A stretch of DNA of 14,035 nt from a virus: positions 1 to 14,035 of the IMG/VR virus record IMGVR_UViG_3300005935_005627, one strand, 5' to 3'. This document shows positions 4,942-5,283 of this stretch, in pieces. The notes under the pieces are model-generated. The model ran no database searches. It was not told the DNA's origin and saw nothing but the letters and a program-made list of their open reading frames with translations. The position numbers and the translations under genes were made by a program. The stretch's first letter is position 1. Each line of letters starts with the position of its first letter.

Positions 4942-5283
4942 ATGATATAGATTAAAAAACTGTATGTAATTACACGAAGAGATTTAAAGCCAGGTGTTCA
5001 AATGTTACAATCTGCACATGCGGCGGTAGACTTTCAACACCAATACCCAGACATTTCTAAGAAGTGGAATACTCAATCCAACTATCTCATCATTTTGTCA
5101 GTTGAAAATGAAGAACAGCTATTGTTATATCTGGAGAAAATCCGATATAGAGGAATTAAACATACCGTATTTCGAGAACCTGATATCGGGAATCAAATCA
5201 CAGCAATTGCGATCGAACCCGGAGAAAATTCAAGAAAGTTAACAAGCAAATTACCATTAGCGTTAAAAGAAATACAAGTATGA
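4942..5283 (+). CDS. pth2: Peptidyl-tRNA hydrolase, PTH2 (archaeal/eukaryotic) type. It is full length only if translation starts at ATG 4942 and the in-frame TAG at 4948-4950 is read as a sense codon. The six-frame track starts it at Met 5002.
   Basis: KLYVITRRDLKPGVQMLQSAHAAV...LIILSVENEEQLLLYLEKIRYRGIKHTVFREPDIGNQITAIAIEPG aligns with remembered human PTRH2 core ([26 protein letters not shown]...[50 protein letters not shown]). The conserved first strand LYVITRRDL lies upstream of Met 5002. There is no ATG, GTG or TTG between the TAG and 5002. Confidence 0.75.

Follow-up and report, generated by a model that had tools for sequence, protein, structure and literature searches.

How can a complete protein be made from a gene whose third codon is an amber stop? 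This question is posed by a stretch of viral DNA, positions 1 to 14,035 of IMG/VR virus record IMGVR_UViG_3300005935_005627 (the window: the whole stretch analyzed, 14,035 bp at 31% GC), in which a gene of the PTH2 peptidyl-tRNA hydrolase family carries an in-frame TAG between its ATG and the body of the enzyme. Our comparative analyses indicate that this PTH2 is probably translated from the ATG at 4942, with the UAG decoded by a phage-encoded tRNA of anticodon CUA (tRNA-CUA), and that gene and tRNA would form a two-gene module in jumbo phages of standard genetic code. The central parts of the locus are the following.

4942..4950, plus strand: start codon ATG, ATA, and amber TAG (TAG at 4948-4950), in frame with the complete PTH2.
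4942..5283, plus strand: complete PTH2-family open reading frame (ORF), 113 codons including the TAG, with a TGA stop at 5281-5283.
5002..5004, plus strand: ATG, the first canonical in-frame start past the TAG and the choice of standard-code gene callers, giving a 93-amino-acid (aa) product, P0001.
5991..6064, plus strand: tRNA with anticodon CUA (amber suppressor), identified by ARAGORN and by Rfam RF00005 (59 bits).

From 4942 the window reads ATG ATA TAG ATT AAA AAA CTG TAT GTA ATT ACA CGA AGA GAT, and between the TAG (4948-4950) and 5002 the frame contains neither ATG nor GTG nor TTG. An initial annotation of this DNA had placed a TAG at codon 3 of PTH2, the first strand of the enzyme upstream of Met 5002, no start codon in between, and a CUA tRNA about 1 kb downstream; all four were confirmed, the last by ARAGORN and Rfam, 1.0 kb downstream of the TAG. 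Sequencing error was ruled out as the source of the TAG because the codon and its surroundings are identical across 8 contigs, each assembled independently, of ENA, JGI, and Logan origin.

By profile and predicted fold, the ORF is a member of the PTH2 peptidyl-tRNA hydrolase family. Pfam PTH2 (PF01981) matched residues 6-105 of the 113-codon reading over profile positions 2-113 of 115 (E=9e-11; 42.4 bits, with a cut-off of 23), the domain beginning three codons past the TAG; reading the TAG as sense, as the initial annotation had proposed for such a comparison, covers the profile from position 2. A further match was to PHROG 1866 (E=1e-16). In the AlphaFold model of the part that follows the TAG (pLDDT 91.5, pTM 0.85), strand 1 is formed by LYVITR and helix 1 by residues 14-31. 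Because Met 5002 (residue 18) sits inside helix 1, a product begun there would lack strand 1 and, in the model, the start of helix 1 as well. Each of the top 14 Foldseek matches in the PDB was to Pth2 of archaea or to human Bit1, at E values from 3e-8 to 3e-5; TM scores were mostly 0.7-0.8, with 0.76-0.80 for the best (archaeal Pth2 and human Bit1/PTRH2), and sequence matches to the solved Pth2 chains 1rzw, 2zv3, and 1q7s were weak but consistent. The active site of Pth2, as reportedly established in a study of the Sulfolobus solfataricus enzyme, comprises the Asp and Thr of a D-x-G...T segment and the Lys of a G-K motif. Within the phage clade D81, T87, and H26-A27 do not vary, and in the alignment they correspond to D, T, and HA of the archaeal enzymes; the position of the Lys in the archaeal GK motif is occupied by Val, Tyr, or Gln in the phage PTH2 proteins. 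The initial annotation had regarded such an enzyme as unusual in a bacterial virus, which it is not: published reports describe PTH2 both from jumbo phages and from the tRNA arrays of cluster C mycobacteriophages (Iyer et al. 2021, PMC7824862; PMC5966550).

The TAG is shared almost without exception by homologous genes. About 50 distinct loci of 30-85% protein identity and 24-66% GC were read; 54 loci were taken from IMG/VR, many of them on contigs of 100-500 kb. One scan gave a TAG at the aligned codon in 60 of 60 loci, and among the other loci read only L081 departs from this; the same check in homologous phages had been put forward in the initial annotation. The most distant members also carry it (L054, L058 at 66% GC, L062, L063, and the 735-kb genome LR756501.1), as do L064-L067, L080, and L082. 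Across 44 distinct sequence contexts the TAG was constant while 16 different codons preceded it and 10 followed it. An in-frame ATG lies 1-13 codons upstream of the TAG in all loci, at exactly 2 codons in 29 of the 44 contexts; ATG AAR TAG and ATG ACN TAG are the commonest 5′ forms, and in some loci the ATG is 3, 4, or 7 codons away. Any Shine-Dalgarno sequence present is spaced for this upstream ATG (L080, L054, L062, and L091, the last being Ralstonia phage RsoM2USA), and about half of the loci have no ATG, GTG, or TTG between the TAG and the AHAA motif. The sequence arrangement expected of a programmed-readthrough site was present: an in-frame stop conserved at one position in divergent homologs, an intact 3′ ORF (with many invariant residues over the ~50 loci), and a 5′ initiation codon. 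The recurrence of the TAG lies far beyond chance.

Such conservation bears directly on the reading of the TAG as a nonsense mutation that leaves PTH2 dead or reduced to a 93-aa fragment from Met 5002. Standard callers do predict the 93-aa product, and the window locus is disrupted by a homing endonuclease (below); yet the ORF past the TAG is intact and conserved over ~50 divergent loci, a TAG common to all of those is incompatible with independent decay, a product from Met 5002 would, in the AlphaFold model, miss strand 1 together with the beginning of helix 1, and the sequence is the same in 8 assemblies. Decay is very improbable, and the comparative data all but refute it.

The same 5′ arrangement occurs in cultured phages, namely Acinetobacter phage ME3 (ATG ACT TAG ATT), Yersinia phage fHe-Yen9-04 (ATG TCT CAC TAG ATT), Cronobacter phage GAP32 (ATG GCA CAA TAG AAT), Salmonella phage Arash (ATG CTG TAG AAC), RsoM2USA (AAAGGAG, 8 nt, ATG TTG TAG ATT), and the Mycobacterium phages Myrna (GTG TAG GTG) and Cane17 (ATG TAG GTG). 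Public annotation has handled these genes unevenly. In GenBank, PTH2 is unannotated in fHe-Yen9-04 (L088) and RsoM2USA (L091) and truncated in GAP32 (L089), Arash (L092), and ME3, and PTH2 also bears the annotation flag "none" in Serratia phage BF, several Erwinia phages, and one K64-1 record. Two CUA tRNAs are mislabelled in public records, one as tRNA-Ser (L078, 2963-3034; Myrna gene 86) and one as tRNA-Phe (L092, 5310-5384; Arash).

The 305 relatives obtained by protein search fall into two length classes, of ~110-125 aa and ~88-99 aa. The initial annotation had reasoned that homologs starting at the internal Met would show the N-terminal strand to be dispensable; the 88-99-aa "homologs" proved to be gene-caller truncations, standard-code calls from the internal Met of TAG-containing genes (P0001 is the window gene itself, and P0009 is L010). 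The long homologs display Q at the position of the TAG (MTQINQKL...), and the underlying DNA has TAG (L064-L067). The database Q was therefore ruled out as evidence for glutamine, being a product of gene calling under genetic code 15. In the genomes of 185,579 bacterial and archaeal species (one each), a single contig carried a PTH2 with the TAG after its start (hereafter, gated PTH2). This contig (L093, JBBACR010000001.1; 425,361 bp, as the IMG/VR huge-phage contig of L056) is filed in a "Candidatus Pacearchaeota" metagenome-assembled genome and is probably a mis-binned phage genome; since the scan gave only this contig, the gated clade is essentially confined to phages.

The second line of evidence is the company that the gene keeps. 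Of 43 distinct loci, ARAGORN placed a tRNA-CUA no more than 4 kb from the gated gene in 35; among the other 8, four end less than 1 kb past the gene and one has its tRNA-CUA 5.7 kb away. Two layouts were observed. In the window clade, the mycobacteriophages, and the enterobacterial jumbo phages, the tRNA-CUA lies 0.4-3.4 kb 3′ of PTH2, and in the clade of L037-L052 it lies 120-270 nt 5′ of the gene, a distance so short that cotranscription is suggested. L080 has two tandem tRNA-CUA genes (12427-12580), and L058 (66% GC) likewise has two CUA tRNAs. Three homologs that are not gated have no tRNA-CUA nearby: those of phage XacN1 (ORF364) and Stenotrophomonas phage CM1, in both of which the domain is the C terminus of a longer ORF, and that of RaK2, whose PTH2 has its own ATG three codons past a TAG. 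Several huge phages and mycobacteriophage Cane17 also encode a transfer-messenger RNA (tmRNA) within a few kilobases of the gated PTH2 (L041, 6660-7038; L043, 4803-5163; L045, 4493-4853; L049 and L050, ~5640-5995; L079, 12504-12938), and in those loci tmRNA, PTH2, and suppressor tRNA are clustered together. tmRNA and Pth are reportedly linked in function in Escherichia coli. For XacN1, the authors of the genome stated that the targets of the phage CUA suppressors could not be identified (PMC5852040).

Several observations weigh against amber readthrough by the phage tRNA, or limit how far it can be carried. The TAG is present in L053 and L063, with no tRNA-CUA within 10 kb, and in RsoM2USA, with none in the flanks examined. 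L081 (576-908) is the sole member in which TCG (Ser) replaces the TAG, and it has a tRNA-CUA ~750 nt past the stop of the gene. The Lak phages, which are known to recode TAG, have a PTH2 with a normal ATG start and no conserved stop, and an ochre-type suppressor tRNA-UUA lies 0.6-0.7 kb upstream of it (L085, 4344-4416, in Lak-B4; L094, 2236-2308, in Lak-A1). Since L081 and the Lak phages keep the tRNA without the stop gate, the link between PTH2 and suppressor tRNAs is broader than gating. The bodies of the CUA tRNAs are also heterogeneous: 44 distinct CUA tRNAs compared by BLAST with 403 neighboring tRNAs gave no consistent isotype, with a few Trp-like, and the body of the window tRNA-CUA resembles a mycobacteriophage tRNA-Arg and a Streptomyces-phage tRNA-Lys. 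RNAalifold, run on 28 contexts, predicted no pairs that would indicate a conserved RNA structure at the TAG site. In the mycobacteriophages, a Shine-Dalgarno sequence (GGAGG or GAAGG) lies 7 nt from the GTG that follows the TAG, with a gap of only 1 nt to the ATG or GTG before the TAG, and the annotated PTH2 start is that GTG directly after the TAG; PTH2 may be made there without suppression, with gating partial or vestigial. For the window phage, finally, the test of the genetic code described below spans ~20 kb, and recoding of distant late genes is possible. As a candidate considered separately, covariation of TAA with tRNA-UUA in the Lak phages was set aside as chance, an ATG AAT ATC TAA ATA occurring upstream in Lak-B4 and not in Lak-A1, with conservation confined to the adjacent tRNA-UUA.

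The initial annotation had left two options, amber readthrough or initiation at the ATT after a start-stop mini-ORF, and the codons around the TAG help to choose between them. On the latter account, release factor 1 (RF1) terminates at the TAG and the ribosome restarts at or near the ATT, so that the UAG lowers PTH2 output; ATG-ATA-TAG would moreover resemble the bar minigene of phage lambda and yield a dipeptidyl-tRNA, itself a substrate of PTH2. The codon after the TAG is ATT, ATA, or GTG in 28 of the 44 contexts, where weak reinitiation is possible and which thus also counts against readthrough, and the mycobacteriophage GTG, with its well-spaced Shine-Dalgarno sequence, is a ready example of such a start. 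The remaining 16 contexts have GTT, GTA, ACT, ACA, CTT, AGC, or GGC, which are poor or impossible starts, and a pure mini-ORF would not require a stop that is TAG in every case, with TAA and TGA never used, in AT-rich genomes whose ORFs end most often in TAA. Synteny with the tRNA-CUA is left unexplained as well.

The likeness to lambda bar is confined to the window. Its ATG ATA TAG is the same two-codon ORF, and the AUG-AUA-stop of bar has reportedly been described; when bar is expressed, dipeptidyl-tRNA drops off, which kills the cell if Pth is in short supply. Unlike in bar, however, AUA is not conserved in the family (codon 2 is AAA, AAG, or ACN in most members, and ATA occurs only in the window), the mini-ORF is in frame and directly before PTH2, and the stop is always UAG; rather than standing free as a minigene, the window ORF continues in frame into PTH2. 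Termination and restart is on balance unlikely. Amber readthrough, the other option of the initial annotation, is favored by the invariant TAG, the upstream ATG and its Shine-Dalgarno spacing, the synteny with tRNA-CUA, and short homologs that are truncations only; the codon after the TAG is no consistent start, which counts against initiation at the ATT. The base 3′ of the UAG is A in 31, G in 12, C in 1, and T in 0 of the 44 contexts, a purine in 43 of 44 and the sole signal in the sequence context, and a purine at this position is said to favor amber suppression; this signal is confounded by conservation of Ile or Val at the next position.

Might TAG instead be a sense codon throughout the phage (genetic code 15), with that of PTH2 one among many and the tRNA-CUA a general decoder? 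The phage does encode such a tRNA, none of the 24 plus-strand ORFs of the window ends in TAG (TAA dominates anyway at 31% GC), some gene callers translated homologs with code 15, and the PTH2 of LR756501.1 (L080, 735 kb; gene at 9992-10380) has a second in-frame TAG inside the gene (..EFP*IYEQW..). Reading TAG as sense in the window, however, merged or meaningfully lengthened no gene, and its gain was below that of a control with TGA as sense. Across 57 neighborhoods the gain was likewise no greater than in the TGA control, and 1,048 ORF ends comprised 757 TAA, 177 TGA, and 114 TAG.

The clearest case is LR756500.1, a complete genome of 462,018 bp whose PTH2 begins MK*INNHKL... with a tRNA-CUA 1.1 kb away. 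Under the standard code, greedy ORF coverage was 0.856, and reading TAG as sense it was 0.857; of 542 ORFs, 28 (5%) terminate at TAG. In this genome PTH2 alone combines a TAG near the N terminus with the lack of a canonical start close by, the next start lying 67 codons downstream; nearly all other ORFs with an N-terminal TAG have a canonical ATG a few codons later, for which reason their upstream ATGs are attributed to chance. A scan for gated genes, defined by an ATG with a TAG at most 13 codons on and, after it, 80 or more open codons lacking a start close by, recovered 52 PTH2 genes and no other recurrent TAG-gated family, barring fusions of a PTH2 fragment to an endonuclease. The cultured carriers (cluster C mycobacteriophages, GAP32, ME3, fHe-Yen9-04, and Arash) are densely annotated under table 11, the standard code, and a TAG fixed at one codon, never replaced by CAA or CAG and by another sense codon only once, is not what is expected of an ordinary sense codon. 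Genome-wide recoding is thus unsupported in the window, the 57 neighborhoods, and the full 462-kb genome, and we regard it as decidedly unlikely for the window phage; the relatives are standard-code genomes with a single gated gene.

A separate argument that the TAG matters comes from upstream of the gene, where the window holds a truncated copy of PTH2 and a homing endonuclease that do not figure in the initial annotation.

4150..4194, plus strand: native upstream region of the PTH2 family (probable promoter and 5′ untranslated region), before the truncated copy; aligns with L064 and L067.
4195..4265, plus strand: first copy of the PTH2 5′ end, truncated; it reads MT*INHKLIIITRRDLHPGYQAV, the TAG being at 4201-4203.
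4297..4938, plus strand: homing endonuclease of NUMOD3/HNH type, 213 aa, which splits the PTH2 locus (ATG 4297, TAA 4936-4938).

The preceding gene is closed by a terminator-like hairpin (4092-4108). Positions 4150-4194 match the upstream regions of the intact PTH2 genes of L064 and L067 nearly base for base, including the motif GATATATAAATTATAAA. An AT-rich motif of this form, or TATATTTATAAA, was seen 20-35 nt 5′ of the PTH2 ATG in the window (4157-4186), L064, L067, L082, and many IMG/VR loci, and either form may be a phage promoter element. The truncated copy reads ATG ACT TAG ATT AAT CAC AAA TTA ATT ATC ATT ACC AGG AGA GAT and continues CTA CAC CCT GGT TAC CAA GCT GTT CA; its homology with L064 and L067 breaks off between CA and T in ...GCT GTT CAT, ahead of the conserved CAA TCT GCN CAT, and its frame continues into the endonuclease ORF. 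The product of 4297-4938 has a Pfam NUMOD3 match on record, and blastn matched HNH/NUMOD3 homing endonucleases of T4-like phages. Rfam detected no group I intron around the endonuclease, whether at the gathering threshold or at E<=1. ATG 4942 begins 3 nt past the endonuclease stop (TAA 4936-4938), and the endonuclease is flanked by two copies, diverged from each other, of the first ~23 codons of PTH2.

Split loci of this kind recur in L010 (TAG at 1936), L012 (8151), L013 (9246), and L036 (9224), with linkers that differ in sequence and length and a frame that is always retained. Because the frame persists despite these changes, ribosomes that begin at the start of PTH2 and pass the UAG may make the endonuclease, which would then be gated by the same suppressor. 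The complete downstream copies in split loci have a variant N terminus, KLYVITRR...Q-M/I-L/V-Q rather than KLIIITRRDLHPGYQAVQ. The arrangement looks like that of a free-standing, intronless homing endonuclease cassette that cuts PTH2 near codon 23 and carries its own, presumably cleavage-resistant, replacement 5′ end. That this replacement is again of the form ATG-X-TAG argues that the TAG is needed. Expression of the complete PTH2 of the window probably relies on the promoter that precedes the truncated copy, with translation coupled to the stop of the endonuclease.

Taken as a mechanism, amber readthrough would run as follows. Translation of the complete PTH2 would begin at ATG 4942, and the third codon, UAG, would be decoded by the tRNA-CUA at 5991-6064 in competition with host RF1. 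Full-length PTH2 would then appear only when the tRNA-CUA is expressed, processed, and charged, and in roughly proportional amount. Greater stop readthrough, or slower termination by RF1, should leave more stalled or dropped-off peptidyl-tRNA; the same condition should raise readthrough of the PTH2 UAG, and the remedy would scale with the problem. The gated PTH2 and its tRNA-CUA would be inherited together among jumbo and huge phages of several bacterial phyla in which TAG is otherwise a stop. The decoding of the UAG by the tRNA-CUA, like the purpose of the gate, is what we infer from comparing the genomes. The suggestion in the initial annotation of a feed-forward gate, by which PTH2 is made only once suppression is active, is compatible with these data and may be seen as a special case of the sensor rationale. 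The site lies in a tail immediately ahead of strand 1, and the identity of the inserted amino acid is therefore probably unimportant, in keeping with a codon retained as a stop and not for what it encodes.

Known recoding systems offer partial parallels. In prfB, which encodes release factor 2 (RF2), an in-frame UGA is passed by a +1 frameshift with an internal Shine-Dalgarno sequence as stimulator, and the gene senses its own product. PTH2 resembles it in having an early in-frame stop, conserved in homologs, at which a release factor competes with alternative decoding, and in that the products of both genes act on termination or on peptidyl-tRNA; here, however, a dedicated tRNA would give in-frame readthrough, the site showed no stimulatory element, and the feedback loop is hypothesized. 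As in the A1 protein of phage Q-beta and gag-pol of murine leukemia virus, a conserved in-frame stop must be read through for a functional protein. In those cases host tRNAs act at low efficiency to give a C-terminally extended minor product, whereas in the gated genes the stop is at codon 2-13, no product is proposed to arise without readthrough, and the virus supplies the tRNA.

Related in principle are the code-15 crAss-like and Lak phages (TAG to Gln), where a phage suppressor tRNA reads in-frame stops. In such gut phages, in-frame stops in code-change modules are proposed to delay or gate the translation of genes until the suppressor is active (Borges et al. 2021/2022), and suppressor-tRNA recoding as a timing device is already known from that work, which does not mention PTH2. 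Those phages, unlike the ones considered here, have dozens of recoded late genes and TAG as no terminator, in contrast to one small gene under the standard code. The occurrence of PTH2 in phages is likewise known: reports of PTH2 in tRNA arrays (Iyer et al. 2021; Morgado & Vicente 2018) concern the same family in a setting among tRNAs, sometimes with tmRNA, and mention neither the in-frame TAG nor the pairing with tRNA-CUA. In the literature we found no paper noting a stop codon in a phage PTH2 or its pairing with a suppressor tRNA.

Several other genes accompany the module. The window encodes at 165-2582 an 805-aa ORF with Pfam MVP_shoulder and (weak) Vault_3 matches, a relative of the eukaryotic major vault protein, and L082 has a similar 837-aa gene upstream of PTH2. 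A second, divergent PTH2-like paralog (MKYRMYFFVPYNISPIQQAIQAGHAALEYA...), with a normal ATG and no in-frame stop, was seen ~5.8 kb downstream of the gated gene; positions of such paralogs are L023, 13720; L025, 15034; L026, 7754; L029, 13470; L030, 5991; L031, 7054; and L033/L061, 15940. Gene identities at 9307-13468 of the window rest on the Pfam matches on record for L002.

9331-9813: dCMP deaminase.
10087-10965: NAD synthase.
12062-12739: isochorismatase family.
12770-13468: second homing endonuclease, of GIY-YIG/NUMOD3 type.

Suppressor tRNAs have repeatedly been reported in large phages of standard code without a known target, and the UAG-gated PTH2 offers a concrete and testable answer, within reach of culture in the cluster C mycobacteriophages on Mycobacterium smegmatis and in GAP32, ME3, Arash, and fHe-Yen9-04. 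For annotation, the consequence is that standard gene callers overlook or shorten PTH2 and that code-prediction tools may, from this single gene and the tRNA, wrongly label such phages "code 15." We advance tentatively, as a possibility about which we remain somewhat doubtful, the wider proposal that PTH2 is the one conserved client of the orphan amber-suppressor tRNAs found in standard-code jumbo phages, and that the pair is an ancient, portable translational switch sensing the balance of suppression against RF1 termination during infection and adjusting the level of PTH2 to it. If true, PTH2 would be systematically missing or truncated in phage annotations, and the switch would be a viral analogue of the autoregulatory recoding site of RF2, built from a dedicated tRNA, in which stop-codon suppression and peptidyl-tRNA recycling would be joined in one circuit.

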